DNA of 64,000 bases from Elusimicrobiota bacterium (GTDB lineage Bacteria > Elusimicrobiota > Elusimicrobia > UBA1565), in assembly GCA_041660925.1 (NCBI GenBank), contig JBAZVI010000003.1, forward strand, positions 221,832 through 285,831, read 5' to 3'. Under the pieces are notes generated by a model. That model was not told the DNA's origin, did no database searches, and saw only the letters and a list, made by a program, of their open reading frames with translations. Every line of letters starts with the position of its first letter. The first letter of the stretch is position 1. Positions 1,212-21,749 of this stretch are shown piece by piece. A program made the translations under genes and the position numbers.

Positions 1212-1338
1212 GACACAGCTAAAAGAACGGGTGCCAGACACCGGAGGGGTCGCTTTTCATGGCTCCTTTCGGTCGGATAACTGCTATTCTGGATGAGGAC
1301 GGGGAAGGATTGCCGCGCGCCGTTCTTTCCCCCAGCGG

Positions 1339-2928: not shown

Positions 2929-3357
2929 ATGAGCTTATCGAAGGACTATTTCCGGCGTTCGATCCTGCTCGCGGCGTTCCTCGCCGTCGCCGCGCCCGCC
3001 GGCACGCCGCTCGCCGAGCCGGGCAAGCGCGCCGCGCCGGCGCCCGTCGTGCTGAGCGCGTACGACCGCATCCAGTACGCGGCGGACACCGGCGAGCTGA
3101 CGCGCAAGGAGGCCGTCCTGCTGACGGCCGAGCTCCTCTTCATCCCCTCCCTCATCCCCAAGGATTCCAAGTTCGCCCTCAAGGCGGGCGACGTCCTGAC
3201 GCGTGAAGAGGGGGCGACCGGATTCTACAAGGACGTTCACCGGGTCTTCGCCCAGCTCGACGCGCAGGAGCGCCGCTTCCTGAGGGGCCTCAGTCCTTCC
3301 CTGGAAGCCATCATCTCGACGAAGGAACAGGAAGAGAAGGCCGCGCGGAAGAAGTAG
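2929..3357 (+). CDS. Small secreted hypothetical protein (signal peptide LLAAFLAVAAPAG)
   Basis: ORF 2905..3357; the internal ATG at 2929 is preceded by AGGAGG (ccaggaggagttcgATG); cleavable signal peptide; composition rich in K/E/F/Y. Confidence 0.5.
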   Translation: MSLSKDYFRRSILLAAFLAVAAPAGTPLAEPGKRAAPAPVVLSAYDRIQYAADTGELTRKEAVLLTAELLFIPSLIPKDSKFALKAGDVLTREEGATGFYKDVHRVFAQLDAQERRFLRGLSPSLEAIISTKEQEEKAARKK

Positions 3358-3399: not shown

Positions 3400-6300
3400 C
3401 TAGTCGACGACGCTGAAGAGGTCTTCGGGCTGCGCCTGGAGGAGGCCGTCGGCGGCGAGGCGGTCGTACTGCGCGAGGAGGCCGGCGAAGAAGTCCCGGC
3501 CGACGAGGCGGATGTCCATCTTCGGCGCCTTGCCCCGGTACTTGTTGAGCGCGATGAGCCGGGTCGCTTCCTTGAGCGCGTCGGGGCCGGGCGTCACGAC
3601 GTAGGCGTCCCCTTCCCGGCGGACGGAGCTTCCCCCCGCCGCTTTGCGCTTCGCGGGCGCGATCTTGAGCGGCGTCCCGACCAGGGCGAGGATCTCGTCG
3701 GCCGAGTCGACGACCGAGAAGAGCTCCTCGGGGCGGTGCGCGAGCAGGCCCTGCGCGTGGGCCCGTGCATACTGCTCGCTCAAGCCGCGGTAGTACTCCT
3801 TGCCGACGAGGATGATGCGCTTGGGCGCGGCGCCGAGGTCGTTGCCGTCGATGAGCGCCGAGACCTCCTCGAGCGACGAGGCGCCGCCGGGGAACAGGAG
3901 GAAGTGGTCCGAGGCCTTCGCGAACTGCCCGACGCGGGCGCTCTCGGACTCGGCGGTGCCGATGGCGCGGGAGCGGACGATGTCCTCGTCGCCCCAGGTC
4001 GGGATGCGGACGATGGCGAGGTTCTCCCCCGGCACGACGCCCTCGCGCGGCTTCTCCTGGGAGCCGACGGCCGCGGCCTCGAAGGCCGCGCCCATGACGC
4101 CGGCGTTCCCGCAGCCGGAGAGGATGTTGTAGCCGCGGGCGATGAGCTCGGCGGCCACCTTCGCCGCGACGGCCATGGCGGCGAGGATCTTCTCGTCGGT
4201 GCGCGAGCTGCCCAGCACGGTCACGGTCATCGCGCGCGAGGCGTGCGCTGCGTAGCGCTCGTCGAAGGCCGGGATGTCGGCGAAGGTCTTGGGGCGGGGC
4301 GCGTCCACGGAGGGCCTCCAGGCGCCGGTCTTCCAGGCGGCCTTCACGCGGTCGGCGGCGGCCCACCACGCGTCGAGCGATTCCCAGCGGCCGGTCTTCG
4401 CGTCTTTCTCGACGGGGACCGAGAGGGTCTCCACGGCGAAGCGCGGGTCTGCGAGCGAGCCGCCCAGCTCGGCCAGGTCCCAGACGAGCTCCTTCTCTCG
4501 GATGCGGTCCCAAGCCCGCCAGCCGGTCCAGATGTAGGCGCGGTTCTCCATCACGCGCAGGTATTCGTCCGTGTCCGCCGGGCGGCCGAGGATGTCCTTC
4601 GGGCGCTTCGCGATGAGCGCTTTGTTCAGCGGCAGGCGCATCTTCACGAGGGTCAGCGTGCGCGGGGTGGCCCAGGAGATCTGGCGGGTGAGGTAGCTGA
4701 GGGCCGTCTTGGGGTCGAGCGTCGTGAAGATATGGGAGCCGAAGCGGCCCGCTTCGTCGGGCTCGGCGTAGTCGTCGTAGTGCATGTCGCCCATCGTGCC
4801 CGAGGCCTTGGCCGAGTTCAGGCCGCCGCGCAGGCCGCGATAGACCGTCACGTAGGGTTCGCCGTCGACGTATTCGATGCGGGTCGGGGAGAAGGGGAGG
4901 AGGAAGCGGAGGGAGGGGCCGGCGGGCGTCTTGAGAGCGGCCTGTTCGGGCGGCGCGGGTCCGGATCTCGACGCGCCCTTGCGCATCAGAAGGCCGATCG
5001 TGAGCGCGGCGAGCGCGCTGACCGCGACGTTGACGCCGAAGAGGATGGCCGGCATCGTGAGCACGGCGCCCACGGCAGGGAAGAGGCGCGAGGCGCTCAC
5101 GGCCATGAAGATGGGCAGCATCGCGGCGATGCTCGCCGTCATCATCCACTTCGAGAGGTTGCGGTACTTGTCCTGGGGGAGCTTCTCGGAGTAGTAGGTC
5201 ATCCACTTGTTCGAGTTGATGGTGATGAGCCCGCCCAGGAGCCCCGCCAGCGCGAAGGTGAGCATCGGCAGTTGGAGGAAGGTGGACCAGACGAAGGCGG
5301 TCGCCGCGAGCGCGCCGAGCACGGTCCAGCCCTTGCGGCCCAGCGCCTTCTCGGGCAGGAAGGCGAGGGTGGCGAGCAGGCCCGCGAGCCAGCTCCCCCC
5401 GTCGTAGAGTCCGATCATCGTCCCGGCGGCCGAGGGCGCCGAGAACACGCTCAGCGCCAGCACCGTCGCGAGCACGCCGTAGACCATGAAGTGCATGAAG
5501 CGGAAGAAGGCGTAGGGCAGGTACTCCCCCCAGGAGAGCCGGGAGCCTTCCTGCGCCGAAGGCTTCGACTCGGCCCCCTCCTTGGGCGCGGGAGCGGGCT
5601 TCGTCCAGGGCTCCTTGAACTTGAGGGAGGCGTAAAGAGCCGTCGAGAGGCCGATGCCGATGCTCGAGACCACCATCATCGCCGGTCCGCCCAGGAGGTT
5701 GAGCAGCGGCACCGCGGCGAAGAGGGCCATGACGATGCAGGCGACCTCGACCCACTGGTAGGCGTAGTTGAGGCCGAGCTCGAGCTTCGCGGGGTTCTGG
5801 TTGCCGATGATCATGCGCGGAAGGAGGTTCTCGGCGACGCCGCGGTTGACGCCGTAGACGAGGCCGCCGACGATGGAGTTGGCGAGGAAGAGCCCGAACA
5901 TCACGGCGTTCGTCGCTCCGAGCGCCGCGGCGATGGGGATGGGGAGGCCGGAGACGGCGAGCGCGAGGATGGCGGCGACGTTGACCCACTTCGGGTTGAA
6001 GCGGGCCATGAAGGCCGAGCCCATCCAGGCGCCGGCGACGCGCATGACGTAGCCGATGCCCGCGATCATGAGCGCGGCGGGCAGGCCGAAGAGCGATGCG
6101 GTGAACAGCGGCAGGGCCACCGCCTGCACCTCCTGCGCCATCGCGTTGACGGTCCAGGCCGGGACGAACCCGAGGTGGAAGGAGCGCGGCAGCATGCGCA
6201 GGCGGCCGAGGGCGCCCGCGCGCTGGAAGTCGATGCGGTCGACCCAGTCCTCGGCGAGGGTGCGGCCCTCGCTCGAATCGTGGCCGTAGAGTCCGTCCTG

Positions 6301-8295
6301 GACGACGATCCGGCCGTTCTCCGTATCGATCTCGAAGCGCACGCCCTTGAGGAGCTCGTAGAGGCGGTCGCGCGCGGAGGCCTCGTCCTTGCCGCGGACG
6401 GTGATGTTGCCGAGGAGGTCGCCCTCGCCGACCTTGGCGCCCGGCTGGAGGAAGAGCTCGGAGAGGAAGACGGCTCCCCCCTCCTTCGGGAGGCCCTGCA
6501 CGCTCTTGAGCGTGCCGGCGGCCTTCGCGATGAAGAAGCGGTGCTGGAGGAGGACCGGCTCGCCGCGCGGCTCGGGGCGGCTCTCGAGCGAGAAGGCCGC
6601 GAGCAGGCCCTCGCGCATGACGTCCACCCCGTAGGATTCCTTGAGGCTCGCCCAGATGTCGGCGCCGCCCATGCGGGCGTTGATCTCGACGATGGGCGCG
6701 GCGAGCTTCCCGCCCACCAGCGTGAGGATGGCCTCGACGTGCGCGTTGCCGGTCTTGAGGCCGACGGCGTCGAGGGACTTGAGGGCCTGGGCGCGGGCGA
6801 GCTCTTCCATCTCCTTCGGCAGCCGCAGGCCGTAGGTCGTGCCGCGCTCCTGGTTCCCGAGGGCGGGCGGGTTGTAGCTCACGGAGGTGAAGACGGCCTT
6901 GCCTTCGCGCACGACGACCTCGACATCGGTCATGAGCCCGTCGGGGATCTGCGCCTCGAAGAGCACCGGGGGCTTCTCGTCGACCTGCTTGCTGCGGGCC
7001 TTGCGCGGGTCCGTGCGGGCGAGCTCGTCGATCTTCCCCTCGATGTCGCGGAAGGCGGCCTCGGCGGCCTCCGGGCTGTCGATGTCCAGCGTCACGCCCC
7101 AGCCGCCGCCGCCCGAGTCGGGCTTGGCCACGGCCTTCTCGAAGCCGGCGGCCTTGATCTTCTTGAAGGCCTCGCGGGCCTCGGCCGCGCTGTGCGCCTG
7201 GAAGGCGGGCAGGTGGAGGCTCGGGTCGCCGTAGGCGTTCATGAGTTCGCGGGCCCGGATCTTCGAATGCGCGGCGCTCACGGCCTCCGGCGAGAAGCCG
7301 GGGACCCCGAGCCCCTCGGCCAGTTCGGCCTCGAGCTGGGCGTAGGCGTTGAGGTAGGTCTTCACCGCGTCGATGCGGCGGGTCTTCGCGATGCCCTTCG
7401 CCTGCTCCACGATCGCGCGCAGGTTGTCGGCGGAGTGGCCGCCGACGTCGGCGGAGTAGTAGTTGCCGGGGAGGATCCCCTTCGAGACGGCGAAGTCCTT
7501 CTGGTCCGGGTAGCCGAGGACGAGGAGCTCGAAGCCGAGCTCTTTCGAGAGCGCCGCCATGTGCTCGTAGAGGTAGTCGCGGCCGCCGACCTTGGAGACG
7601 ACGTAGAGCAAGGATTTCCCCGCGAGCGGCTTGTCCGCGGGCAAGGCCGGGGACAGCGAGGAGCGCTTCCGCCCGTTCGTGCCCGAGACATCGAGGACAG
7701 GCTCTTCGGTGGAGCCTGTCCTTCCGCGGCCTTCGAAGAGAAGTCCGGTCGCCGCGCGGGTCTTCTCCGTCCCCGCGCCGGGCTCGGCGAGGGTCTCGGA
7801 GACCTCGGTCTGGCCGGTCTTCGTCGTTTCAAGGACGGAGACCGGAGCCTTCTTGTCGGAGGAGGCCTTGGCGGGAAGGATCGCGTCCTTCGCCGGGAGC
7901 GGGAGGGACTTCGATGCTTCGGCTGCCGGGATGATCGCGGCGTTCGCGGCCGGGGTCTTGAGGGTCGCAGCGGCCGCGGCGCTCTGGACCGTCGGCTGGA
8001 CGGAGGGCGGGGTCGGGAGGGCGAGCCCGTTGGTGAGCGGCGCGATGTTCGGAGCCGCGAGCGGTGCGAGCTGGACCGACGGCGCGACCGCGGTCGGTAC
8101 GACGGGGGTCCCCGCGGTCGTCGCCGATTGGGCGGAGCTGGCCGCGGCCTGACAGAACGCCTCCCCTGATAAGGAAAGGACCAGGCAGGCCGAGAGGAGC
8201 GCGGCGAAGCCCTTCTTCAGTTCACGCACGATATGAAGGATAGCCCCCCGCCCGGATTCCAGCAAGGGGTCGAAGGGGCAGGGAGCATGGGCCAT
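3400..8295 (-). CDS. Giant multidomain fusion protein: N-terminal hydrophobic segment + Ala/Pro/Thr-rich linker, ATP-grasp ligase domain, 12-TM MFS transporter domain, unknown domain (about 250 aa), LOG-family (TIGR00730-like) domain, partially duplicated LOG C-terminal segment
   Basis: A single uninterrupted 1631-codon frame. ATP-grasp motifs AVAKPDSGGGGWGVTL and EINARMGGA. Long hydrophobic block with MFS-like helices. LOG motifs VTVLGSSR, GCGNAGVMGA and PGGASSLEEV. The opposite-strand 1477-aa and 892-aa ORFs are compositional junk. Confidence 0.6.
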   Translation of the reverse strand: MAHAPCPFDPLLESGRGAILHIVRELKKGFAALLSACLVLSLSGEAFCQAAASSAQSATTAGTPVVPTAVAPSVQLAPLAAPNIAPLTNGLALPTPPSVQPTVQSAAAAATLKTPAANAAIIPAAEASKSLPLPAKDAILPAKASSDKKAPVSVLETTKTGQTEVSETLAEPGAGTEKTRAATGLLFEGRGRTGSTEEPVLDVSGTNGRKRSSLSPALPADKPLAGKSLLYVVSKVGGRDYLYEHMAALSKELGFELLVLGYPDQKDFAVSKGILPGNYYSADVGGHSADNLRAIVEQAKGIAKTRRIDAVKTYLNAYAQLEAELAEGLGVPGFSPEAVSAAHSKIRARELMNAYGDPSLHLPAFQAHSAAEAREAFKKIKAAGFEKAVAKPDSGGGGWGVTLDIDSPEAAEAAFRDIEGKIDELARTDPRKARSKQVDEKPPVLFEAQIPDGLMTDVEVVVREGKAVFTSVSYNPPALGNQERGTTYGLRLPKEMEELARAQALKSLDAVGLKTGNAHVEAILTLVGGKLAAPIVEINARMGGADIWASLKESYGVDVMREGLLAAFSLESRPEPRGEPVLLQHRFFIAKAAGTLKSVQGLPKEGGAVFLSELFLQPGAKVGEGDLLGNITVRGKDEASARDRLYELLKGVRFEIDTENGRIVVQDGLYGHDSSEGRTLAEDWVDRIDFQRAGALGRLRMLPRSFHLGFVPAWTVNAMAQEVQAVALPLFTASLFGLPAALMIAGIGYVMRVAGAWMGSAFMARFNPKWVNVAAILALAVSGLPIPIAAALGATNAVMFGLFLANSIVGGLVYGVNRGVAENLLPRMIIGNQNPAKLELGLNYAYQWVEVACIVMALFAAVPLLNLLGGPAMMVVSSIGIGLSTALYASLKFKEPWTKPAPAPKEGAESKPSAQEGSRLSWGEYLPYAFFRFMHFMVYGVLATVLALSVFSAPSAAGTMIGLYDGGSWLAGLLATLAFLPEKALGRKGWTVLGALAATAFVWSTFLQLPMLTFALAGLLGGLITINSNKWMTYYSEKLPQDKYRNLSKWMMTASIAAMLPIFMAVSASRLFPAVGAVLTMPAILFGVNVAVSALAALTIGLLMRKGASRSGPAPPEQAALKTPAGPSLRFLLPFSPTRIEYVDGEPYVTVYRGLRGGLNSAKASGTMGDMHYDDYAEPDEAGRFGSHIFTTLDPKTALSYLTRQISWATPRTLTLVKMRLPLNKALIAKRPKDILGRPADTDEYLRVMENRAYIWTGWRAWDRIREKELVWDLAELGGSLADPRFAVETLSVPVEKDAKTGRWESLDAWWAAADRVKAAWKTGAWRPSVDAPRPKTFADIPAFDERYAAHASRAMTVTVLGSSRTDEKILAAMAVAAKVAAELIARGYNILSGCGNAGVMGAAFEAAAVGSQEKPREGVVPGENLAIVRIPTWGDEDIVRSRAIGTAESESARVGQFAKASDHFLLFPGGASSLEEVSALIDGNDLGAAPKRIILVGKEYYRGLSEQYARAHAQGLLAHRPEELFSVVDSADEILALVGTPLKIAPAKRKAAGGSSVRREGDAYVVTPGPDALKEATRLIALNKYRGKAPKMDIRLVGRDFFAGLLAQYDRLAADGLLQAQPEDLFSVVD

Positions 8296-8781: not shown

Positions 8782-10718
<1,937 letters not shown>

Positions 10719-10730
10719 GTCGGTCTCCCC

Positions 10731-10759
10731 GTCGGGAATCCTTGACGGGGATTCCCGAC
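10731..10759. repeat. Palindromic element GTCGGGAATCC-ttgacgg-GGATTCCCGAC (11-bp perfect arms); second copy at 47021..47048
   Basis: Read directly from the sequence; it sits 13 nt upstream of the OPT start codon and downstream of the receiver gene stop. Confidence 0.7.
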
Positions 10760-10839
10760 CTGTCTACAAAAGTTGTTTCCGGCGCCTGGAATGACTTGCT
10801 GAAACCGTCCTGCGAAACGCCGCTGCGTTTCGCAGGCTA

Positions 10840-11244
10840 TTATACACCGTCTCCCTTCCTCTCCGGCGGCGCCGTGAGCAGCTCGCGGATGCGGCCGAGG
10901 AGCTGCTCGGGCGTGAAGGGCTTGGAGATCCACGCGTCCCCGCCCGCGCTGACGCTCTCCTTGAAGGACTCCTCGGGGTTCATGGCGGTCATGAAGAGCA
11001 CCGGGGTCGTCCGCGTCTCCGCGCGCTCGCGCAGTTGCCGGCAGACCTCGAAGCCGCTGATGCCGGGCAGGAGGATGTCGAGGAGGATGAGGGCCGGGCG
11101 CAGCGCGACGGCGCGCTCGAGGGTGTCCTCCCCGTAGGCGAGGGGCTGGACGCGGTAGTCGTTCTTCAGGGTCCCCGCGAGGGCCTCGCGGATCCCCAGG
11201 TCGTCGTCGATGACGAGGATGAGGGGGCGGATGTCGTCGTTCAT
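10840..11244 (-). CDS. Single-domain response regulator (CheY-like receiver, 134 aa)
   Basis: C-terminal part of ORF 10840..13134 reads MNDDIRPLILVIDDD..LILLDILLPGISG..SKPF; ATG overlaps the stop of the radical SAM gene (ATGA). Confidence 0.8.
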   Translation of the reverse strand: MNDDIRPLILVIDDDLGIREALAGTLKNDYRVQPLAYGEDTLERAVALRPALILLDILLPGISGFEVCRQLRERAETRTTPVLFMTAMNPEESFKESVSAGGDAWISKPFTPEQLLGRIRELLTAPPERKGDGV

Positions 11245-13028
11245 GCGGCCTCCTTCCCCGCGCGGACGCGGGGTCTGAGCACGCGCCGGTAGCGCGTTTT
11301 GACGGCGTTGGACGGCGAGAGGAACTGGTCGGAGCCGAAGGGCTTGAAGCGGCGGGTCGCCAGGCGCACGAGGCGCGAGATGACGCCCTTGCGCGCGTGG
11401 CCGAAGACGGAGTAGAGGAACATCAGGAGCTCGATGTGGACGCTGTCCACCTCGAGGGTCGGCTGGATGCGCTCGAGCGTCTCGGTGACCGCGCGCGTCG
11501 AGTCCATGATCTGGCGGTCCTTCGCCTCCCAGGAGAGCCCCCCCACCTCGTCGAAGCGCTCGGAGTAGGCGCTGACGAACTCGTCGGCGGAGAACGGGTC
11601 GAGGGCGCCGGCCGGCGCCGGACGCAGGGACACGCCGAAGCGCCCCGGGGTGCGGTAGAGCGGCGAGCCGGGGTAGAGGTAGAAAGGGTTGAGAGAGTGC
11701 ACGTCGATGCAGTCGCGGTGCTCCTCGAGGAAGCGCACGGTGTCCGCGACGTCCGCGGGGGTCTCCGTGGGCAGGCCGCCGATGATCTCGATGTGGTTCC
11801 AGATCCCCAGCGCGTGGGAGCGGCGCAGGAAGCGCGAGGCGCGCTCGGGGGTCGTCCCCTTGCGGATGTAGCGCAGCAGGCGCGCGCTGCCCGTCTCGAG
11901 CCCGAAGGTCAGCTTCACCGCGCCCGATTCCCGCATCTTCTCGAGGAGGCGTTCGTCGAGCTGGCGGAAGTTCACGCAGTCGCACCACTGCAGGCCGAGC
12001 CGCGCGCGGACCATGCGCCCGCAGAGCTCGAGGGCGAAGTCGTAGTGGTTGTTGAAGTTCGCGTTGATGAAGTAGACGCCGGTGGCGCCCTGGTCCTTGA
12101 GCGCGCGCAGGTGCTCGACGACCTCGGCCGGGGTGCGGCGGTCGCTGCGGGTCTGGCTCGAGCAGAAGATGCACTGCCCCGCGCAGTGGGACTCGAAGCG
12201 GCTCATGAGCACGAGCTGCTCCCTGCCCCCGTGCTCGGCGAGGAGGCGGCGGAAGGCGGGGCCGGAGGCGTTGTAGCTCGCCAGGATGCGCCGCCCCGTG
12301 CGCCGGTAGAGCTCGAGCGGGTAGCCGCGGTAGTCGGGGAAGGTCAGCGGCGGATAGTGGCCCTGCATGACGCCCTTGAGGACGCGGCCCGAGGACGTAC
12401 GGCGGTAGACGTTGAAGGGCAGGCGGCGCTCGCGCTCGACGACGGCGTGCGCGAGCTGCTCGAGCTCGCGCTCTCCCTGGATGACGACGGCGTAGTCGAA
12501 GCAGGGATAGTCGCGCAGGATCTCGTAGTAGAGCTGCTTGGAGACGTCCTTGTGCCCGATGACGACCGGCTTGCCCGTGCGCCGGCGGATCTCGTCGGCG
12601 AGGAGCGCGGCCGCGTTGAGCAGGAACGGCGTCTTGAGGTCGGCCAGGGTGAGGCCGTAGAGGTCGGCCTCGGGAAGGGCGTCGCAGAGCGGCGCGAGGG
12701 CCGCGGCGGCCGCCTCGAGGGAACGGGCGCCCTTTCCCTTGAGCTTCCCGGAGAGCCACCGGGCGACCGCGTGCGGGTCGCGCAGCAGCGAGAAGTCGGT
12801 CCAGGGGTGCGCCGGCTTCACCTTGAGATGGAAGGGCACGTCGAAGTCGTGGAGCGTCGTGTCGATGCGCTTGCGGCGCAGGTGGGCCGCCAGCGTCGGG
12901 ATCGAGATGTTCGGGACGGGGAAGCACTCGTTGTTGCGCGTCTCGGCCGGCGGGACGATGAGCGCGACTCTCGCCCTGCGCGGGCGGTCCGCGGACGCTT
13001 TCTCCCGCGCCGGGCGACCGTGTGCCAT
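11241..13028 (-). CDS. B12-binding-domain radical SAM protein (595 aa)
   Basis: N-terminal B12-binding-like region (RVALIVPP..) followed by the CxxxCxxC radical SAM cluster motif (CAGQCIFCS) and a TIM-barrel-like remainder. Confidence 0.8.
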   Translation of the reverse strand: MAHGRPAREKASADRPRRARVALIVPPAETRNNECFPVPNISIPTLAAHLRRKRIDTTLHDFDVPFHLKVKPAHPWTDFSLLRDPHAVARWLSGKLKGKGARSLEAAAAALAPLCDALPEADLYGLTLADLKTPFLLNAAALLADEIRRRTGKPVVIGHKDVSKQLYYEILRDYPCFDYAVVIQGERELEQLAHAVVERERRLPFNVYRRTSSGRVLKGVMQGHYPPLTFPDYRGYPLELYRRTGRRILASYNASGPAFRRLLAEHGGREQLVLMSRFESHCAGQCIFCSSQTRSDRRTPAEVVEHLRALKDQGATGVYFINANFNNHYDFALELCGRMVRARLGLQWCDCVNFRQLDERLLEKMRESGAVKLTFGLETGSARLLRYIRKGTTPERASRFLRRSHALGIWNHIEIIGGLPTETPADVADTVRFLEEHRDCIDVHSLNPFYLYPGSPLYRTPGRFGVSLRPAPAGALDPFSADEFVSAYSERFDEVGGLSWEAKDRQIMDSTRAVTETLERIQPTLEVDSVHIELLMFLYSVFGHARKGVISRLVRLATRRFKPFGSDQFLSPSNAVKTRYRRVLRPRVRAGKEAA

Positions 13029-13261
13029 GGGCCAGATGATAGCAAACGCCCCGCCCCGCCCGAGGGCCCGCCCGATTCTCCCTCCCTCTTCGAGAGTTCG
13101 CGCTATCGGTTCCCTTACGGCGCGATCGCGGCACTATCAGCGTCTGGGTGTCGCCGAGGGTTAGGGGTGGGTAGAACGGATGGCTGTTTCGGCTGGGGTC
13201 AGCCGCCGCTGCGCGTTGCGGTGGGCGGGTGGGCGGTGGAGCCTCAAGGGTTCATGCAAGG

Positions 13262-14038
13262 CTAATGAGTATAGAAATGAGATTCGGATCCCTCTCCTAA
13301 CACACAGCCGACGCCCACATACCTCTTGCGTGCCAATTCAATTGGAGAAGTTTGCAGAGCAACATTATCTCGAGAGATGCCTCCCAGGAGCAGTGTCGCC
13401 TCATTAATCATGTTGGCGGGAATCGTGAATGTCAGGTCAAACCGAGTCCAGGGCTCGACGACAGTTGACGACACATTGAGGATGTATGTCCCATCGTTCG
13501 ATGGGGAGCAATCGGCGTTCACCCCGACAGAAGAGCCATCACCGAAGCAGGAAGCTTTGACGGATGCAGGCGCTAGAAGTCGTTCCCTGTTGATCCGTAG
13601 ACGTATCTCCTGTGGCCGCACTTTGAATTGGACGAGCGGTTTGTTTTTCCAGTAAGGCCAGTTGGTCTGCCGGAAGTCTAATGATACTTGCAGGTGTTCG
13701 TCAGAAATATCCCAATTCTTTCGATTCTTGATTGCCGAGTAGATTCCCAGGGGGTTTGGTATCAGGGCAAGCGGAAGCATGATGCATGGCCCGACGGATA
13801 GGATACTCTCGGTCACGCGTGGGTTCGCATAGACATAGAGCGGCGGATCTGTGAGCCTGACAAGAGGGCCCCATTCCTTCGGCTGGCCCTCCTTGTTTAT
13901 GTGGGAGGGGTCTGCAACCACCAAACCCTTTGAATAAGTCACATAGGCGCACGAGTTGAGGCACAAGCATGCGGCCGCGACGAGCACTGCTGACGATTTC
14001 TTGTGGATTAGCATGTAAGGTAGCAGCAATTTTGACAA
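13262..14038 (-). CDS. Hypothetical lipoprotein (lipobox LNSC) encoded in a low-GC island
   Basis: Signal peptide plus Cys lipobox; protein-like composition; local GC is far below the window average. An alternative start is at the M 8 codons downstream of the ORF start. Confidence 0.5.
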   Translation of the reverse strand: MSKLLLPYMLIHKKSSAVLVAAACLCLNSCAYVTYSKGLVVADPSHINKEGQPKEWGPLVRLTDPPLYVYANPRVTESILSVGPCIMLPLALIPNPLGIYSAIKNRKNWDISDEHLQVSLDFRQTNWPYWKNKPLVQFKVRPQEIRLRINRERLLAPASVKASCFGDGSSVGVNADCSPSNDGTYILNVSSTVVEPWTRFDLTFTIPANMINEATLLLGGISRDNVALQTSPIELARKRYVGVGCVLGEGSESHFYTH

Positions 14039-14089
14039 ATTTTGCCTGCGAAGCTATGTGCATGGTCGTATCATAAGTTCTAAAGGTTT

Positions 14090-14122
14090 GGGGGCAGGTT
14101 CGCATGCTGCGAACCTGCCCCC
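14090..14122. repeat. Perfect 15-bp stem / 3-nt loop hairpin GGGGGCAGGTTCGCA-tgc-TGCGAACCTGCCCCC
   Basis: Read directly from the sequence; no adjacent T-tract, so it is not a classic intrinsic terminator. Confidence 0.7.
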
Positions 14123-14184
14123 AGCGTCCCCGCCCCCCACCCGCCGCACCGCTTCCCGGCAGTTATAGCGGTCCCAGAAATGTC

Positions 14185-14220
14185 CGAGGGCGGGCTCGCA
14201 TCATCGCGAGCCCGCCCTCG
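14185..14220. repeat. Perfect 15-bp stem / 6-nt loop hairpin CGAGGGCGGGCTCGC-atcatc-GCGAGCCCGCCCTCG
   Basis: Read directly from the sequence; it is the second strong hairpin in the 240-bp spacer between the lipoprotein gene and glnN. Confidence 0.7.
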
Positions 14221-14260
14221 TATTAAGAACTCCTCTGCCGGGAACAGCTTATCTTCCCGA

Positions 14261-14283
14261 GCAGAATCCCGAAGGGATTCTGC
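14261..14283 (-). terminator. Hairpin GCAGAATCCC-gaa-GGGATTCTGC abutting the glnN stop codon (possible terminator or 3' stabiliser)
   Basis: 10-bp perfect inverted repeat whose last bases overlap the glnN TAG; there is no T-tract, so its function is uncertain. Confidence 0.4.
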
Positions 14284-16439
14284 TACAGGAGGTTGAGCAT
14301 GTCCCGGTACTTGGGCAGCGGCCAGTAGCGGTGCTCGACGGCCTGCTCGGTGCGGTCGCAGGCCGAGCGCATCTCCGAGAGGGTCTCGACGCCCGCGCCG
14401 GCGAAGACCTTCGCGCGCTGGACCATGTCGGTCTCGGCGCCGGCCTTCTCGAGGACCTTCTCCGCGCCGTCGGCGCCCGCGTAGAGCTCGGCGAGCAGCC
14501 CGCCGAACTCCGCGAGCTTCGCCTTGAGCTCCTTGCCGCCCTTCGCGGACTCCAGGCGCCCGGCCGCCGAGCCGTAGAGGTCGATCTGGCGCACGAGCGC
14601 GGGCGCGATGTCGGTGACGATGAGCTCGCGGAGCTGGCGCAGCTCGATCTCCTTGAGCTTCACGTAGGCCTCGAGCTTGATCTCGTGCTTAGCCTCGAGC
14701 TCGTGCTTCGAGAGGACCTTGTAGCGCTCGTAGAGCTCGACGACGGCCTTCTCGACGAAGGTCTCGAGCGCGTCCGGGGTGTTCTTGGCGTTGGGCAGGC
14801 CGCGGCGCGCCGCCTCCCTGTGCCACTCCTCGGAGTAGCCGTTGCCCTCGAAGCGGATGCGCTTGGTCTCCTTGACCAGCTCGCGCACGACGTCGAGCGC
14901 GCGCTTCGTGAAGTCCTCGTCGCCGGCGTGCTTCTCGAGCTTCTCCAGCACGCGGTCGAGACCGTCGGCGACCGCCAGGCAGAGGGCCGTGGCCGGCTCC
15001 GCGATGCTCTGCGAGGAGCCGACGGCGCGGAACTCGAACTTGTTGCCGGTGAAGGCCAGCGGCGAGGTGCGGTTGCGGTCGGAGTTGTCGAGCACGATGC
15101 TCGGCAGGCTCTTGAGGCCGTGCCCGATGGCCTCGCGCGAGGCGTCCTTGGACAGAGAGCCCTTCTCGATGTCGGTGAGGAGGCGGTCGAGGTACTCTCC
15201 GAGGTAGACGGACATGATGGCCGGCGGAGCCTCGTTGGCCCCGAGCCGGTGGTCGTTGCCCGCGTCGGCGACGGCCGCGCGCAGGAGCCCCCCGTACTTG
15301 TTCACGCCGGCGAGGAAGGCGGCCAGGTAGACGAGGAACTGGATGTTCTTCTTGGGGGCCGCGCCGGGCTCGAGGAGGTTCTGCCCCTCGCTATCCGCCA
15401 TCGACCAGTTCAGGTGCTTGCCGCTGCCGTTGATGCCCGAGAAGGGCTTCTCGTGTAGGAGCAGGGCGAAGCCGTGGTCGTCGGCCGTCTTGCGCATGAT
15501 CTCCATGAGCTGGAGGTTGTGGTCGATGGCCAGGTTCGCGGTCTCGAAGATCGGCGCGAGCTCGAACTGGTTGGGCGCGACCTCGTTGTGGCGCGTCTTG
15601 GCCGGGATGCCGCGCTCGAAGAGCGCGCGGTCGAGGTCCGTCATGAACTCGAGGACCTTGGGCTGGATGGAGCCGAAGTAGTGGTCCTCGAGCTGCTGCT
15701 GCTTGGCGGAGGCGGCGCCGAAGAGCGTGCGGCCCGCGTAGACGAGGTCCGGGCGCCGGCGGTAGAACTCCTTGCGCACGAGGAAGTACTCCTGCTCGGG
15801 TCCGATGGTCACGCGCACGTTGCGCGCGGTGCGGTTGCCGAAGAGCTTGAGGAGCTTGAAGGCGCGCTCCTCGACGACGCGCACGGCGCGCAGGAGCGGG
15901 GTCTTCATGTCGAGCGTCTCTCCGGTCCAGGAGAGATAGACCGAGGGGATGACGAGGGTCGCGCCCTTCCCGTCGCTGTTCTTAAGGAGGAAGGCCGGGG
16001 AGGTCGGGTCCCACGCGGTGTAGCCGCGGGCCTCGAAGGTCGAGCGCATGCCGCCCGAGGGGAAGGAGGAGGCGTCGGGCTCGCTCTGGATGAGCTGGCG
16101 GCCGGAGAAGCGGTCGATGGGCTGGCCGGTCTCGTCGAAGCTCAGGAAGGAGTCGTGCTTCTCGGCGGTGACGCCCCGCTGCGGCTGGAACCAGTGGCAG
16201 AAATGGGTCGCGCCCTGTGAGATGGCCCACTCCTTCATGGCGTGGGCGACCTCGTCGGCGATCTCGACCTCGAGCTTCTCGTCGTTCTCGATGACGTCGA
16301 GGATCTGCTGATAGGTGGCCTTGCTCAGGTTCCGGGCCATCGCCTTCTTGTCGAAGGTCAGGGCGCCGTAGTCCGCGAAGAGGCCTTTCGATTCTTTCAC
16401 CAGGTTGACTCCGTTTTGCGAGATTTGCGCGCTCGGCAT
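14283..16439 (-). CDS. glnN: Glutamine synthetase type III
   Basis: Its length and N-terminal sequence resemble Bacteroides GlnN (MPSAQISQ..HFCHWFQPQRGVTAEKHDSF..QSEPDASSFPSGGMRSTFEARGYTAWDP). The ORF begins at a TTG 11 codons upstream; the ATG at 16439 was chosen as the start. Confidence 0.9.
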   Translation of the reverse strand: MPSAQISQNGVNLVKESKGLFADYGALTFDKKAMARNLSKATYQQILDVIENDEKLEVEIADEVAHAMKEWAISQGATHFCHWFQPQRGVTAEKHDSFLSFDETGQPIDRFSGRQLIQSEPDASSFPSGGMRSTFEARGYTAWDPTSPAFLLKNSDGKGATLVIPSVYLSWTGETLDMKTPLLRAVRVVEERAFKLLKLFGNRTARNVRVTIGPEQEYFLVRKEFYRRRPDLVYAGRTLFGAASAKQQQLEDHYFGSIQPKVLEFMTDLDRALFERGIPAKTRHNEVAPNQFELAPIFETANLAIDHNLQLMEIMRKTADDHGFALLLHEKPFSGINGSGKHLNWSMADSEGQNLLEPGAAPKKNIQFLVYLAAFLAGVNKYGGLLRAAVADAGNDHRLGANEAPPAIMSVYLGEYLDRLLTDIEKGSLSKDASREAIGHGLKSLPSIVLDNSDRNRTSPLAFTGNKFEFRAVGSSQSIAEPATALCLAVADGLDRVLEKLEKHAGDEDFTKRALDVVRELVKETKRIRFEGNGYSEEWHREAARRGLPNAKNTPDALETFVEKAVVELYERYKVLSKHELEAKHEIKLEAYVKLKEIELRQLRELIVTDIAPALVRQIDLYGSAAGRLESAKGGKELKAKLAEFGGLLAELYAGADGAEKVLEKAGAETDMVQRAKVFAGAGVETLSEMRSACDRTEQAVEHRYWPLPKYRDMLNLL

Positions 16440-16534
16440 TGTAAAAATAGCAGAAAATGCCGAATTTCGCAATACCTAAGTCTTGTTTAGCGGAAAAATC
16501 ACATGAAGAAGCTACAAATATCGATTTAAAGCCA

Positions 16535-16572
16535 TAAAAAATCGGGCCCCCCTTGCGGGAGGCCCGGTTTTC
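16535..16572 (-). terminator. Rho-independent-like terminator (GC hairpin flanked by A/T runs) downstream of the 16637..17452 gene
   Basis: CGGGCCCCCC-ttgc-GGGAGGCCCG stem with a T-run on the minus strand (+strand aaaaaa before the stem) and tttt after it, so it may act bidirectionally. Confidence 0.5.
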
Positions 16573-16636
16573 CCTTCCCCCCTCTCCCGCCCCGCCGGGA
16601 GAGGGGTTGGGGGTGAGGGGACTGAGCGCGGAGCGC

Positions 16637-17452
16637 TCAGTCCCAGCGGATGTCGCTCTGCAGCGCCGCCATCGGCTTCTTGAGGTCCTCGCGGAAGCTG
16701 ATCTTCGACTGCTGGAGTTCCTTGAAGAGCCCGTCGCCCTGGACGAAGTAGCGGCTCGTGCCCTCGGTGTACTTCACCGCGGTCTCGATCTTCCAGGAGA
16801 GCTTCACGGTCATGCCGGCGATGGGGTCCTCGGGCTGCGCGACGTTGATGATGCTCGTCGGCGGCACCTCGGCCTTCATGGAGAACTTGTACGCCCACAG
16901 GACGTTCACCTGGAGCGGCTCGATGGTGACGTTGGTGAGGTACTTGCCCTTCCCCTTGTAGTTCCCGCCGTAGCAGCGCGTCACCTCGAAGCGCACGTCG
17001 ATGGTGTTGGCGCCGTACATGTTCTTGGCGGTGAGCTGGTAGACCCGCCCTTCCGGCGGGCGCCAGCCGCCGAGCTGCGCCCAGTGGGTGATCCCGTCGG
17101 GGACGGCCGCCGCGTAGGTCGTCTGCACGTCGACGACCGGCTTGTTGTTCTCGATGATCTGCCAGATCTGCTGTCCGATGTTGATGATCTGGCCGATGTC
17201 GATGTCGCCGCCGATGGGCGGGACGCCGCCGCCCACGGGGGGCAGGTCGCCGGGCCCGTCGGGCATCCCGCCGTGGGGATGGATGCTCGGGCCCTCATCC
17301 TTGAGGACGATGGAATTGGGGTCGATGGTATACGCCAAGGGGTCCAGTTTCGCGGCCTGGACTTCCAGGGGAGAGAACGACGGCTTCTGTGGGGTCTGCT
17401 GCGCCTGGGCGTTGACGCCGACGGCGAGCACGAATGCGAGCAGTGCCTGCAT
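16637..17452 (-). CDS. Secreted hypothetical protein (signal peptide MQALLAFVLAVGVNAQA)
   Basis: Protein-like composition (W, Y, K, N, Q-rich) and a Gly/Pro-rich linker; the competing ORFs overlapping it are low-complexity. Confidence 0.55.
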   Translation of the reverse strand: MQALLAFVLAVGVNAQAQQTPQKPSFSPLEVQAAKLDPLAYTIDPNSIVLKDEGPSIHPHGGMPDGPGDLPPVGGGVPPIGGDIDIGQIINIGQQIWQIIENNKPVVDVQTTYAAAVPDGITHWAQLGGWRPPEGRVYQLTAKNMYGANTIDVRFEVTRCYGGNYKGKGKYLTNVTIEPLQVNVLWAYKFSMKAEVPPTSIINVAQPEDPIAGMTVKLSWKIETAVKYTEGTSRYFVQGDGLFKELQQSKISFREDLKKPMAALQSDIRWD

Positions 17453-17649: not shown

Positions 17650-19044
17650 TTGGGTGCGCGCATGATCCGGGAAGCGGACCTCCTTCAGCTCGTCCTCGCG
17701 GCCTCCGCCCTCCGGGCAGGGCTGCTGGCGTTCGCCCGGCCGCGCTTCGCCCCCAGCGCCTCTCCCCACGGCGCGCTGGCGGCCTGCGAGGAGGAACTCT
17801 TCACGCTCCGCCGGGCCTCCTCGGCGCTGTGGGCCTTCGTCCTCCTCGACTCCCTGCTGCGCACCTACGTCGCATACTGGGCGCTGCGCCCTCCGGTCTC
17901 CTGGGGGCTGCTGGCGTGGACGGCGGGCAGCGACGTCGTCCTCGCCTTCGCGGCCGCCGGGCTCCGTCGACCCGGGCGCTGCCTCGCGGCGCCGCTCCTG
18001 CATCCTCTGAGGCTCCTGGCTGCCGCGCTCTCCGGCGGGTCGGCCTTCCACGACGACGGCCGGAGCCTGCTCCTCCCTCGCGGAGGGCCTCTGCCGAGCG
18101 TCCTCCCCGCGCCGCTCGCCGACAACGGGACCTGCGCGGCGTGGCTCTCCGAGCTGACGGGCGCGGCTCCGAGCGACGTCCTCCGCGGCCTGCGCGACGA
18201 GGAGCTCTGGCCGGGCTCGCGCGTGCGCGAAGCCCTCGCGCGGCTCGGCGTCCGGCCGCACGAGCGGAGCGCGGAGCTCGAGCGCTATTGCGCGGAGACC
18301 GGAGACTTCCTTTATGAGCTCGTGCTTTGGAACCGCTGCCGCTTCAAGCTCGGGATGCGGGCGCGGATCATGGCGGCCCTCGGGACCGCGGGCCCGAAGC
18401 CGCTGCGGGTCCTCTGCTTCGGCGACGGTCTGGGAGCCGACGCCGCATGCCTGAGCGCGCTCGGGCACGCGGTGGAGCACTGGGAGCCTGCGCCGGCGTG
18501 CCGCGCCTTCGCCCGGAGGCTCTTCGCGGCCGAGGGCCGCGCGGTCCGCGTGCTGGAGCGCGAGCCCGCAGAGACGGGCGCCTACGACGCCGTCGTCTGT
18601 CTCGACGTCCTCGAGCACGTCCCCGACCCTCCGGCGCTCGCCGCGCGCTTGAGCGCGCTGTTGAGGCCCGGCGGCCGGCTCTTCGTCCACGCGCCCTTCG
18701 GCATCCTCACTCCGGAGGCGGGCACGCACCTGCGCTCCAACCGCGTCTACTTCGGGCGTCCCGAGCGCGTGTTCCCCCCGGAGCTGCGCCTCGCGGGCGG
18801 GGAGCCGCTCTTCTGGGCGCCGGTCGTCTTCGAGAAGAGTCCCGGGGCGGCCGCCCTCCCTCCCGCCTTCCGCGCGAGCGCGCTTCTCATGCGCTGCGGC
18901 GTCTACGCTTTCGCGTGGAGGATGCTCGTCGAGGTCCCCGTCCGCTGGGCCAACCTCATCTCCCTGAGCGCGTTGCGCCGTACCTTCTTCGAGGCCTCGC
19001 GGCTGGCGCCGTTTTGCTCCTCGGACGGGGAGGTCCGTCCGTGA
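17650..19044 (+). CDS. Membrane-anchored class I SAM-dependent methyltransferase; the N-terminal TM region is paralogous to a segment of the downstream GT21-Lnt protein
   Basis: C-terminal Rossmann MTase motifs (LRVLCFGDGLGADA .. DAVVCLDVLEHVPDP .. LLRPGGRLFVHAP). An upstream TTGACC-N17-TATCCT promoter-like sequence is present. Stop overlaps the next gene start (GTGA). Confidence 0.6.
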   Translation: MGARMIREADLLQLVLAASALRAGLLAFARPRFAPSASPHGALAACEEELFTLRRASSALWAFVLLDSLLRTYVAYWALRPPVSWGLLAWTAGSDVVLAFAAAGLRRPGRCLAAPLLHPLRLLAAALSGGSAFHDDGRSLLLPRGGPLPSVLPAPLADNGTCAAWLSELTGAAPSDVLRGLRDEELWPGSRVREALARLGVRPHERSAELERYCAETGDFLYELVLWNRCRFKLGMRARIMAALGTAGPKPLRVLCFGDGLGADAACLSALGHAVEHWEPAPACRAFARRLFAAEGRAVRVLEREPAETGAYDAVVCLDVLEHVPDPPALAARLSALLRPGGRLFVHAPFGILTPEAGTHLRSNRVYFGRPERVFPPELRLAGGEPLFWAPVVFEKSPGAAALPPAFRASALLMRCGVYAFAWRMLVEVPVRWANLISLSALRRTFFEASRLAPFCSSDGEVRP

Positions 19045-21749
19045 GCGCGTTCGGCTCCCCGCAGACGCTCGCGGCCGCGCTCGCGCTCGCCGCGGCTCAG
19101 CTCACGGCGCTCGGGCTCTTCCTGCGGCGGCTGCGCACACGCGCCGCGCCGGGTGCGGGGGCGCCGCCGTCGGCGGCCGTCATCGTCCCCTGCGCCGGAC
19201 CGGTCGCGGACCTCGAGGGAGCCGTGCGCTCCTACCTCGCGCAGGACTATCCCGGTCGCGTGGAGTTCCTCTTCGTGACCCCGTCGGCCTCCGACCCGTC
19301 CCACGCGGCGCTCGAGCGCCTCCTCGCGGGGGAGCCGCGGGCGCGGCTCCTCGCCTCCGAGGTCTTCCCGACGCGCTGCAGCGGCAAGTGCGCCGACCTC
19401 GCGTTCGCGGTGCGCTCGGCGGGCTCCTGCGAGCTCCTCGTCTTCGCGGACGCCGACCAGCGGGTCCCGCGCGGCTGGTTGCGCGCGCTGACGGCCCCGC
19501 TCGCCGACGCGTCGGTCGCCGCGGCCACGAGCGCCGCGCTCCCCGTGCCGCGCGCCGCGGCCCCGGCCTCCTGGCTCCACGCGGCGTGGCAGGGCTTCGG
19601 GCTCCCGTACCTCGCGCTCTCGGGGAGCGTCTGCGGGCAGTCGCTCGCGCTGCGGCGCGCGGACTTCGAGTCCTGGGGCGTCGCGGAGCTCTGGGAGCGC
19701 AGCTTCTCCGACGACCTGTCTCTGAGCGTCCTTCTCGCGCGCAGGGGCGCGCGTGTCCGCTTCGTCGGCGAGGCCATGCCCGAGGGCGGCTCGCCGTCGT
19801 CGCTCGCGGGGGTCTTCGCGCTGACCTCGCGCTGGTTCTTCACCTTCCGCGTCTATCGTCCGGGCGTCTGGGGAATGGGGCTCGCGCTCGTCTTCGCGAA
19901 GCTCTGGCTGCTCGCCTGGGCGCTCGGCGCCCCGGTCTCCTGGGGCCTGCTGTCGCTGCTCTGCGCCTCCGACGCGGTCGCGGCGCTGTTCCTGGCCGCA
20001 CCGGTCGGGAAGGGCTCCGCCGCTCGGGCCGCGCTCGCGCTCCTGTCCGCGGCGGCGGCGGTCCCCCTCATCCTGCTCCAGGCGGCGGGGCTCGCGTCCT
20101 CCGCGCTGCGCGTCGAGGTCCGCTGGGGGACGCGCCGCTATCGCGTACTGGGTCCCGCCGACGTCTGCGTGCTCGAGGGGCCTCCCTTCGTCTCCCCGGA
20201 GCTCCGTGCCGTCCTCGGGGGCGCCGCCGCCGCGGCGTCCTATCTCTTCCCCGCCCTCGGCGTTCTGGGCTTCTTCTGCTACGTCCCGCTGCTCGCCTTC
20301 GCGCGCGAGGGTCCGCCGCGGCGGGCGTTCCTCCTCGGCTGGCTCTACGGGCTCTCCATGTGGGGGTTCGGGCTGCTCTGGTTCGTCGAGACGCTCCGGC
20401 GCTTCCTCTCGATGGGCGCGTTCGAAGCCGCGCTCCTTCTGCTCCCCTGCGCCCTCTATCACGGCCTCCTGCCCGCCCTCGTCTGCGCACTGCTCGCGTC
20501 CCAGCCGCTCCGGCTTCGCGCGCGCGCGGCCCTCTTCGTCCCCGCCGCTGCGGCGCTCTGGGCCTGCGCGGAGGCGCTCTTCCCGACCCTCTTCCCTTAT
20601 TCCGTGGGCGCGAGCGCGGCCTCGCACCTCCCGTTCGCGCAGGCGCTGGAGTTCGTCGGCCTCGGGGGCCTCTGCGCGGCCGTGCTCCTCGTCAACGGGC
20701 TCGTCCTGTCGGGGCTCGAGGCCTTCGGCCGGCGCGAACGGCGAGCCGCCGCCGCGGCCCTTTGCGTCGCGCTGACGCTCGCCGCCGCGCTCGAGGCGTC
20801 GGGCCGCGCCCGGATGGCGCGCATCGACGCGCGCGTCTTTGCCGCGCTCGCGCGCGGCGAGGGCTTGCGGGTCGTCGCCGTCCAGGGCGCGTTCCCGGGC
20901 GGGTGGCGGCTGCGCGACGGGCGCCGCTCCCCCGAGCGATTCGAGGCCTATCGGGACTCGACCGCGGGGCTGCGCGGACGCGGCGGCGCCGACCTCGTCG
21001 TCTGGCCGGAGTATTCCTACCCGGGCGTCGTCTCCTACGCGTCGCCGGCGGACCCTTCGGGCGCGAGGCTCGACGGCCCGGAGGCGGCCGCGCTGATGAG
21101 CCTCCTGCCGCGGGGCGCCGACCTTCTGCTCAGCAGCGAGGCGCGCCGCGCAGGGAGCCGCGGCGTCGCCGCGTTCCTCCTCGGACCTTCCGGGAGCGTG
21201 CTCGGCGTCTCCGAGAAGTCCCGGCTCGTCCCCTTCGGAGAGTATCTCCCGGTCCCGGGTCTCGACGCCCTGATGGCGCGCCTGAGCCCCCGCACCGAGC
21301 GCATGTCGGTCGGGCGGCCCGGGCTGCTGCGCACGCGCGCCGGAGTCCGCGTAGGCACGCTCATCTGCTACGAGGACCTCTCCCCGCCGGCGGCGCGGGA
21401 GCTCGCCGCGGCCGGGGCCGAGCTCTTCGCCAGCGTCGGCAGCGACGCGTGGTTCGTCCCCGCGGCGGCGCGCCTGCATCTGCGGCAGTCCGTCCTGCGC
21501 GCGGTGGAGAACCGGCGCTTCCTCGTGCGTGCGCTCGACGACGGCTGCAGCGCCGTCGTGGATCCCGTCGGGCGGGTCCTGGTCGGGTTCTCTCCGGAGG
21601 AGGCCGGCGCGCTCGGGCGGGAGGTCGCGCGTTCGAGCGGGGCGACGTGGTACGCCCGCGCCGCCGGCGCGTTCGGCCGGCGGCCGGCCGTCCTGGTCGT
21701 GCTCCTCTTCGTCCTGGCCGTTCTGGCTCCGCGCCGCCCGGAGCATTGA
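19041..21749 (+). CDS. Fusion protein: GT21-like (ceramide-glucosyltransferase/HpnI-like) GT2 glycosyltransferase domain + complete apolipoprotein N-acyltransferase (Lnt: polytopic membrane domain + CN-hydrolase domain + C-terminal TM)
   Basis: GTG start at 19041 overlapping the upstream stop. GT motifs VIVPCAG..QDYP..SDPS..SGKCADL..FADADQ. Lnt CN-hydrolase motifs VVWPEYSYPG..LICYEDLSPP..ELFASVGSDAWF. The ORF upstream of 19041 and the two giant overlapping ORFs (18903..22103 minus; 19388..21787 plus) are R-rich junk. Confidence 0.7.
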   Translation: MSAFGSPQTLAAALALAAAQLTALGLFLRRLRTRAAPGAGAPPSAAVIVPCAGPVADLEGAVRSYLAQDYPGRVEFLFVTPSASDPSHAALERLLAGEPRARLLASEVFPTRCSGKCADLAFAVRSAGSCELLVFADADQRVPRGWLRALTAPLADASVAAATSAALPVPRAAAPASWLHAAWQGFGLPYLALSGSVCGQSLALRRADFESWGVAELWERSFSDDLSLSVLLARRGARVRFVGEAMPEGGSPSSLAGVFALTSRWFFTFRVYRPGVWGMGLALVFAKLWLLAWALGAPVSWGLLSLLCASDAVAALFLAAPVGKGSAARAALALLSAAAAVPLILLQAAGLASSALRVEVRWGTRRYRVLGPADVCVLEGPPFVSPELRAVLGGAAAAASYLFPALGVLGFFCYVPLLAFAREGPPRRAFLLGWLYGLSMWGFGLLWFVETLRRFLSMGAFEAALLLLPCALYHGLLPALVCALLASQPLRLRARAALFVPAAAALWACAEALFPTLFPYSVGASAASHLPFAQALEFVGLGGLCAAVLLVNGLVLSGLEAFGRRERRAAAAALCVALTLAAALEASGRARMARIDARVFAALARGEGLRVVAVQGAFPGGWRLRDGRRSPERFEAYRDSTAGLRGRGGADLVVWPEYSYPGVVSYASPADPSGARLDGPEAAALMSLLPRGADLLLSSEARRAGSRGVAAFLLGPSGSVLGVSEKSRLVPFGEYLPVPGLDALMARLSPRTERMSVGRPGLLRTRAGVRVGTLICYEDLSPPAARELAAAGAELFASVGSDAWFVPAAARLHLRQSVLRAVENRRFLVRALDDGCSAVVDPVGRVLVGFSPEEAGALGREVARSSGATWYARAAGAFGRRPAVLVVLLFVLAVLAPRRPEH

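Follow-up and report, generated by a model that had tools for sequence, protein, structure and literature searches.

A low-GC islet carrying a single lipoprotein gene in an Elusimicrobiota genome, a candidate recruit from the integron cassette pool

The genome assembly GCA_041660925.1, from an Elusimicrobiota bacterium of the GTDB lineage UBA1565, contains a short stretch of low-GC DNA that encodes a single predicted lipoprotein. We analysed this islet and its surroundings in a 64,000-bp stretch of contig JBAZVI010000003.1 (positions 221,832 to 285,831 of the forward strand; hereafter the window, in whose numbering all positions are given). The islet (13240–14089, 850 bp, GC 0.513) lies in host DNA of ~70% GC, between glnN, encoding a type III glutamine synthetase (14283–16472), and a gene for a B12-binding radical SAM-like protein (11241–13028), which is the host gene downstream of the islet and is overlapped by a response-regulator gene (10840–11244). 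The minus strand encodes glnN, the open reading frame (ORF) of the islet and the radical SAM gene alike. In the direction of transcription, glnN is therefore followed by three hairpins (C, B and A) and a 74-nt leader, after which come the lipoprotein ORF, a host-like spacer of 233 bp and an operon of the radical SAM and response-regulator genes. An earlier note on this DNA, made from the letters and ORF translations alone, had named the upstream neighbour glnN, and Pfam domain matches confirm this (GSIII_N at E = 7e-72, Gln-synt_C and Gln-synt_C-ter). Both flanks are of host type: glnN has a GC content at third codon positions (GC3) of 0.96, the two flanks together range from 0.96 to 0.97, and they share the same style of hairpin.

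The boundaries of the islet were placed by two-boundary maximum-likelihood segmentation of positions 12000–15500, which gave a GC content of 0.513 inside and 0.693 outside with a sharp change at both edges. In 200-bp windows GC stays at 0.50–0.57 across 13200–14100 and is ~0.70 on both flanks, and when the window is divided into 128 bins of 500 bp, none has a lower value than 13501–14000 (0.542). Taken as 850-bp chunks, host DNA has a GC content of 0.709 +/- 0.032 with a minimum of 0.625, which puts the islet at z = -6.1, and its dinucleotide signature ranks second of 74. The ORF itself is equally distinct, with GC of 0.54, 0.43 and 0.59 at the three codon positions and 0.525 overall (GC3 ~0.59–0.60); GC3 in 32 host genes is 0.926 +/- 0.033 and never falls below 0.848. 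A score akin to the codon adaptation index is 0.229 for the islet ORF against a host range of 0.58–0.84 (minimum 0.581). The earlier note had estimated a drop from about 70% to roughly 50% GC over some 850 bp, had taken it as the mark of horizontally acquired DNA, and had proposed sliding-window GC and codon-usage plots as a check. Both were computed here and both lie far from host values rather than being uniform; with composition, codon usage and dinucleotide signature all extreme outliers, we consider it very likely that the islet was acquired horizontally by some route. A second, smaller dip in GC (~0.50 over 200–300 bp) occurs at 16300–16600, in the intergenic DNA upstream of glnN and beside the tandem hairpins of the preceding gene, and looks like an ordinary AT-rich promoter region rather than foreign DNA.

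The source is a metagenome-assembled genome, and a composition change that is abrupt at both edges is also what one would see if a low-GC segment of another organism had been joined in during metagenome assembly or binning. Such an artefact is very improbable here. The flanks are of the same host type, and a single contig runs from one to the other across the islet, so that an internal chimera of 850 bp would need two false joins, and a second assembler arrived at the same sequence: a 4167-bp Logan contig from run SRR18595301 (L163) matches window positions 10495–14661 at 100% identity and spans both junctions.

The islet bears few of the marks of a conventional mobile element. We found no tRNA or tmRNA gene in the 64-kb window, so the islet is not linked to a tRNA; no terminal inverted repeats at its boundaries; and no integrase, transposase or other recombinase domain, including Phage_integrase, among ~43 scanned window genes. 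The best boundary repeat considered as a target-site duplication, CTCAAGGGTT / CTAAAGGTTT, matches at 8 of 10 bases and was set aside, since 21% of shuffles, and 36% of control pairs taken from the genome, reach that level. The islet thus differs from classical genomic islands in lacking a tRNA gene, an integrase and flanking direct repeats, and resembles small genomic islets and orphan-like acquired genes in its abrupt composition break, its single accessory envelope gene and its housekeeping flanks.

The only long ORF in the islet extends, at its maximum, over 13262–14038 on the minus strand (258 amino acids from a TTG codon), and a frame of at least 258 codons arose in just 2 of 5000 shuffles of the islet. 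The earlier note had described a lone lipoprotein gene with these limits. The ORF and the lipoprotein assignment hold up, but the TTG codon is a less likely start than an ATG at 14014, which would give an intact, full-length gene at 13262–14014 (minus strand, 250 amino acids) belonging to a very rare family. On sequence comparison the ATG is likely the true start, in agreement with both the gene call on Logan contig L163 (250 amino acids) and the alignment of homologs. The JGI call P0001 (226 amino acids, 13262–13942) starts at a GTG codon, V33, and removes the conserved signal peptide; this start is too short, because the homolog alignment begins within the signal peptide and the NSCAY segment with its lipobox cysteine is conserved.

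The signal peptide with its lipobox occupies 13949–14014 on the minus strand and reads MLIHKKSSAVLVAAACLCLNS-C22, Cys22 being the conserved lipidation cysteine. The N-terminus, MLIHKKSSAVLVAAACLCL, has a KK n-region followed by a hydrophobic h-region and ranks among the two most hydrophobic segments of the protein, and a helix is predicted at residues 2–19. The lipobox is L-N-S-C22, in which the Asn at -2 is atypical and found in the window copy and in its homolog P0002, described below. Two host lipoprotein maturation genes lie within 10 kb, encoding Lgt (23936–24718, minus strand) and an Lnt fusion (18327–21749, plus strand). As judged from their sequences, these represent a host capacity to mature lipoproteins and not proof of lipidation. 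The Lnt fusion is unusual in itself: its 1140 amino acids join a family-2 glycosyltransferase to an apolipoprotein N-acyltransferase (LNT_N and CN_hydrolase domains).

An AlphaFold2 model of the islet protein, built from a five-sequence alignment, has a mean predicted local distance difference test (pLDDT) score of 74.5 and a predicted TM-score (pTM) of 0.69, and consists of the signal helix followed by a mostly beta-stranded body. Foldseek returned no match at E <= 0.001 against the Protein Data Bank (PDB) and viral models, the best TM-score (~0.25) being to generic adhesin-like or carbohydrate-binding module (CBM)-like beta-sandwiches. We can say only that the product is a predicted secreted, membrane-anchored, beta-rich protein; a binding or shielding role at the surface or in the periplasm would be a guess.

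Upstream of the ATG, the AT-rich leader (14015–14088, minus strand) fills the 74 nt between hairpin A and the start codon; on the minus strand it begins TTAGAAC, and a promoter scan found no convincing sigma-70 promoter or Shine-Dalgarno match within it. At the other end of the gene no hairpin was found after the stop codon, and since this is so a transcript of the islet gene could continue into the radical SAM operon.

Given that all three genes of the locus are on the minus strand, the hairpins follow glnN and precede the foreign gene. Hairpin C (14260–14284; 11-bp perfect stem, 3-nt loop), which the earlier note missed, overlaps the glnN stop codon; hairpin B (14185–14220; 15-bp perfect stem, 6-nt loop, GC 0.78) is the second stem-loop and hairpin A (14089–14123; 16-bp perfect stem, 3-nt loop, GC 0.69) the third, abutting the islet. 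All are annotated on the minus strand, and they lie 0 (C), 63 (B) and 160 (A) nt after the glnN stop codon. Neither A nor B has a T-tract next to it on either strand, the tails being AACCTTTAGA after A and GACATTTCTG after B, and a terminator scan found no U-tract terminator at the hairpins. All three form in the predicted structure of the glnN 3' RNA (-139.9 kcal/mol, z = -8.5).

Two perfect hairpins without T-tracts (A and B) had been singled out in the earlier note as exceptional. Their existence stands, and the label does not, the same kind being found at many host gene ends. A search of all 64 kb for perfect stems (10 bp minimum, loops of 3–9 nt), with first-order Markov simulations as the null, yielded 16 such hairpins where ~2 were expected; the longest simulated stem was 13 bp. 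Eleven of the 16 are intergenic and lie 0–160 nt after a stop codon, for which the binomial tail is ~1e-5 given that ~17% of the window is intergenic, and none of these 11 has a clear T-run after its stem. Tandem sets follow three genes: glnN; the response-regulator gene, with two hairpins (beginning at 10731 and 10809, together spanning 10731–10836); and the gene ending at 16637, also with two (beginning at 16579 and 16618, together spanning 16579–16644). Single gene-end hairpins occur at 34730–34761, 37938–37969, 55708–55735 and 59726–59761, the last with a 16-bp stem, and those at 37938 and 59726 lie between convergent genes. The hairpins are thus a gene-end habit of the host and not part of mobile DNA.

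The possibility had been raised that the islet was inserted at a hairpin-rich site, and the geometry lends it some appeal: the low-GC boundary at 14089 coincides with the base of hairpin A, and three stem-loops within 200 bp make the densest cluster in the window. On this account the hairpins might have marked the place of insertion, or have belonged to the mobile DNA, through an integron integrase acting on folded DNA, through an HUH enzyme of the IS200/IS605 or repetitive extragenic palindromic (REP) type, or through hairpin A having arrived with the gene. We consider this improbable. The hairpins have host-like GC content and are of the kind that follows many host genes; their sequences are unique and form no repeat family; their perfect stems lack the bulged bases and the AAC/GTT cores of attC sites, the recombination sites of integron cassettes, and none of them is matched by the attC model described below; and we found neither an HUH or tyrosine recombinase gene in the window nor a target duplication or terminal inverted repeat. 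Nothing shows a hairpin to be a recombination target, and that part of the earlier proposal is not supported.

Two other identities for the hairpins were tried and rejected. A REP-like dispersed repeat family does not fit sequences that are unique in the window, where no 12-mer of hairpin A, B or C recurs elsewhere. Hairpin A as an attC site or known RNA fares no better, since the attC model does not match it and Rfam, which has no credible match for any of the three hairpins, yields only sub-threshold microRNA artefacts. Identical 10-nt stem cores (TCGGGAATCC, GCGGGCTCGC) do occur in two pairs of hairpins, 10731–10759 with 47022–47048 and 14185–14220 with 26161–26188, one member of each pair being intragenic; these may be coincidental, given how GC-rich the genome is, or may point to a faint family of repeats. 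Intrinsic terminators without U-tracts, termed I-shaped, have been described in high-GC bacteria such as mycobacteria. The window hairpins are similar in being long, perfect and GC-rich, in lying 0–160 nt past stop codons without a T-run, and in sometimes occurring in tandem. Their stems of 15–16 perfect bp are longer than is typical, and they could instead be 3'-end stabilisers or barriers to read-through. From their position we infer that the hairpins at this locus are terminator-like structures without U-tracts or 3'-end stabilisers of glnN.

Where the islet gene came from is best approached through its protein family. A word-indexed search of 5.8 billion proteins returned two matches, the query protein itself and P0002, which is 40% identical over its full length (pairwise E = 3e-62). 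A HMMER profile search of 1.84 billion cluster representatives brought the family to 19 proteins at E <= 0.001, nearly all of 220–260 amino acids, with P0030 the nearest relative at 49% identity over full length. The window protein, P0002 and P0030 have in common the C-terminal motif GCVLGEGSExHFYTH. Of 16 family members, 15 retain the lipobox cysteine, mostly as L-(S/C)-(S/G)-C, and in the family it is followed by a KGL motif and by the proline-rich hydrophobic segment GPxIxxPLPxIPWPPGI. We found no match for the lipoprotein in Pfam, NCBIfam, PHROG or PADLOC, and the comparison with phage and plasmid sequences that the earlier note had recommended likewise came back empty, with no tblastn match in either collection.

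Genomic context could be retrieved for four relatives, and in three of these (P0002, P0030 and P0038, that is, the two closest and one of the most distant) the gene is an integron cassette with the same type of attC site. P0002 is encoded on two overlapping metagenome contigs, L001 and L002 (JGI samples 3300045919 and 3300046018), where small ORFs, among them BrnT/BrnA, ParE and CopG toxin-antitoxin pairs, follow one another in a run on the same strand. The spacers of this run hold 13 repeats of 58–82 nt that start with GCCTAAC (the R'' box, RYYYAAC) and end with GTTAGGC (the R' box, GTTRRRY). The repeats fold as imperfect hairpins with an unpaired central spacer and single bulged bases, and RNAalifold predicts 19 pairs, with compensatory changes in 9 of them. 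By sequence and predicted fold these are canonical attC sites, and P0002 sits between two of them, a5 and a6. The array, of at least 13 attC sites at ~50% GC (L001 1–6500 and L002 1–2261), holds many ORFs of unknown function besides the toxin-antitoxin cassettes. It adjoins DNA of ~65% GC encoding DUF899, HxlR and HNH/McrA-like proteins, its integrase end lies outside the contigs, and the flank genes of L001 are also present on a 110-kb contig.

From the 13 sites of L001 and L002 we built an attC covariance model (R1), which scores its own members at 54–95 bits. On contig L169, a sequence outside the model set, it found four attC sites at 77–93 bits, two of which directly flank P0038 (79.5 and 84.4 bits). 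These four form a cluster of ~2.5 kb (L169 ~500–3100, JGI sample 3300072652) with a GC content of 0.48–0.56 between flanks of 0.69 and 0.63–0.68. No integrase was found on this 4.7-kb contig, and by its sequence the cluster is CALIN-like, with attC sites of the type seen on L001; we use CALIN (cluster of attC sites lacking an integron integrase) and SALIN (single attC site lacking an integron integrase) as defined for IntegronFinder. On contig L168, an attC site of 42.3 bits (E = 2.6e-10) lies six nt after the P0030 stop codon, and a truncated attC and a GTTAGGC box lie just upstream of the gene. The core boxes of the downstream site (L168 824–902) are degenerate, with GCCCATC for RYYYAAC and GCTAGGC for GTTRRRY, yet the model gives it 42 bits. 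Perhaps this attC is decaying and no longer mobile, which would place it on the way to the attC-less condition of the window copy.

In composition, too, the islet resembles these cassettes. Cassette ORFs of the family have a GC content of 0.49–0.52 and a GC3 of 0.50–0.53, close to the 0.525 overall GC of the islet ORF, and the cassette arrays of the relatives adjoin DNA of 64–69% GC. The islet thus shares the composition of this cassette pool, which is already known from high-GC hosts, and differs from its own host.

At the islet itself the covariance model gave weak signals. Its best matches in the whole window scored 12.2 and 12.0 bits (E ~0.5), far below the 42–95 bits of real sites. The second of these is a plus-strand stretch at 13159–13226 (E = 0.54 for the whole window and 0.011 in the 1.3-kb locus, by a rough calibration). 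Its end lies 14 nt short of the low-GC DNA, nhmmer ranks the spot second in the window, and it has a 12-mer, GGGTAGAACGGA, and a 9-mer, AGCCGCCGC, in common with attC sites a5 and a10. It is possible that this stretch is an eroded attC scar or a chance match, and we do not use it as evidence. The first bases of the islet on its minus strand, TTAGAA, were also compared with the cassette boundary TTRRRY, a resemblance that, like the attC-like match, is not significant alone.

Taking these observations together, we think it probable that the islet is a recent horizontal acquisition of one intact gene from the integron cassette pool, fixed outside an integron, and that the hairpins beside it are the host's. 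For the narrower proposition that this particular copy was itself once a cassette, we infer about an even chance.

Several points weigh against the cassette-pool origin. No intact attC flanks the islet gene by nhmmer, the covariance model or a generic structural scan, and a model-independent scan found no AAC...GTT-closed hairpin between 12950 and 14350. The stretch at 13159–13226 lies on the strand opposite the ORF, unlike the three related cassettes, in which ORF and attC share a strand; the majority of its stem pairs are disrupted, and past the stop codon the DNA folds no better than shuffles (z = -1.8). No integron integrase was found in the 64-kb window. The leader of the islet, at 74 nt, is longer than the 13 nt that separate R' box and start codon in the related cassettes. 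The fourth relative with known context, P0042, overlaps its downstream gene in an operon-like arrangement on a contig of 44–49% GC with no attC, and because of this the family is not exclusively cassette-borne. The insertion of the islet is read from composition alone, and with the nearest relative only 49% identical the true donor is not among the sampled sequences. Finally, the lack of a U-tract sits uneasily with a terminator-like role for the host hairpins.

Some of these points are what the main rival explanation would predict, namely that the gene came directly from a low-GC donor whose chromosome carries the family as an ordinary gene, by transformation or conjugation followed by illegitimate recombination, and that the cassettes of the relatives are cases of parallel recruitment. 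The missing attC and integrase and the leader unlike those of cassettes would all follow, and P0042 may represent the ordinary-gene state. We nevertheless regard direct transfer as the less likely origin. Cassette carriage spans the family, being found in the two nearest relatives (49% and 40% identity) and in a distant one (~20–25%); in length the islet is close to a single cassette, and it holds exactly one gene; and the attC-like stretch, weak as it is (E = 0.011 locally), lies at the islet edge.

A plausible course for an origin in the cassette pool is suggested by experimental work. Loot et al. (bioRxiv 10.1101/2022.09.11.507474) reported that cassettes are efficiently placed by integron integrases at attG sites in the genome, which are minimal and have a GWT consensus, that isolated cassettes (SALINs) are common in genomes, and that cassette domestication is possible, the folded attC being readily deleted by replication slippage. 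By analogy, a cassette, or at least a gene of that mobile pool, would have entered an Elusimicrobiota cell and been inserted, either by an integrase at a minimal attG-type site or by illegitimate recombination. It would thereby have become fixed in the intergenic space between glnN and the radical SAM gene, outside any integron platform, and later loss or erosion of the attC would have left it immobile. The islet fits the end state of a route of attG insertion and attC loss. Like SALINs, it is a single small gene of foreign composition at a chromosomal intergenic site with no integrase nearby and with relatives that are bona fide cassettes; it differs in having no intact attC and a 5' leader longer than that of related cassettes. 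Because an intact attC is missing, we do not class the window copy as a cassette or a SALIN. More tentatively, and in our estimate somewhat short of an even bet, the islet could be a natural fixed product of attG insertion followed by attC loss in Elusimicrobiota, with 13159–13226 as its scar, and the founding example of a new cassette-borne lipoprotein family. We found no report of integrons in Elusimicrobiota in the literature searched.

We also looked for a genome in which the site is empty. Among the matches listed from representatives of 185,579 species, the best glnN is 57% identical, and a search of genome and metagenome contigs gave 46–60% identity among the matches listed. Orthologs of the radical SAM protein reach at most 49% identity and are not syntenic with glnN. 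Neither the matches listed for glnN nor the radical SAM orthologs led to a genome with the site empty. By these sequence comparisons the host lineage is isolated, with no close relative in the collections searched.

A few further features of the window deserve mention. Directly upstream of glnN, a minus-strand gene (16637–17452) encodes a predicted secreted protein of 271 amino acids with a signal-like N-terminus and host-like composition, for which we found no Pfam, NCBIfam or PHROG match. A minus-strand gene at 3400–8295 encodes a protein of 1631 amino acids carrying both an L-amino-acid-ligase C-terminal domain and a LOG/'lysine decarboxylase'-like SLOG domain, and a stand-alone LOG-family gene (62655–63587, minus strand) lies at the opposite end of the window.

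For this host lineage, the long perfect stem-loops without U-tracts at gene ends should be useful for terminator annotation. The analysis also defines a previously unnamed, very rare lipoprotein family, in which cassettes make up most of the members whose context is known. Acquiring one gene horizontally is an everyday event, and current understanding is not overturned; what is added is provenance. The step from cassette to chromosome has been shown experimentally and has rarely been traced in nature, and the islet is a candidate natural example of such domestication, unsurprising in kind. It provides a tangible example, from an uncultured lineage, of the way in which genes of the cassette pool may become ordinary chromosomal genes far from any integron.

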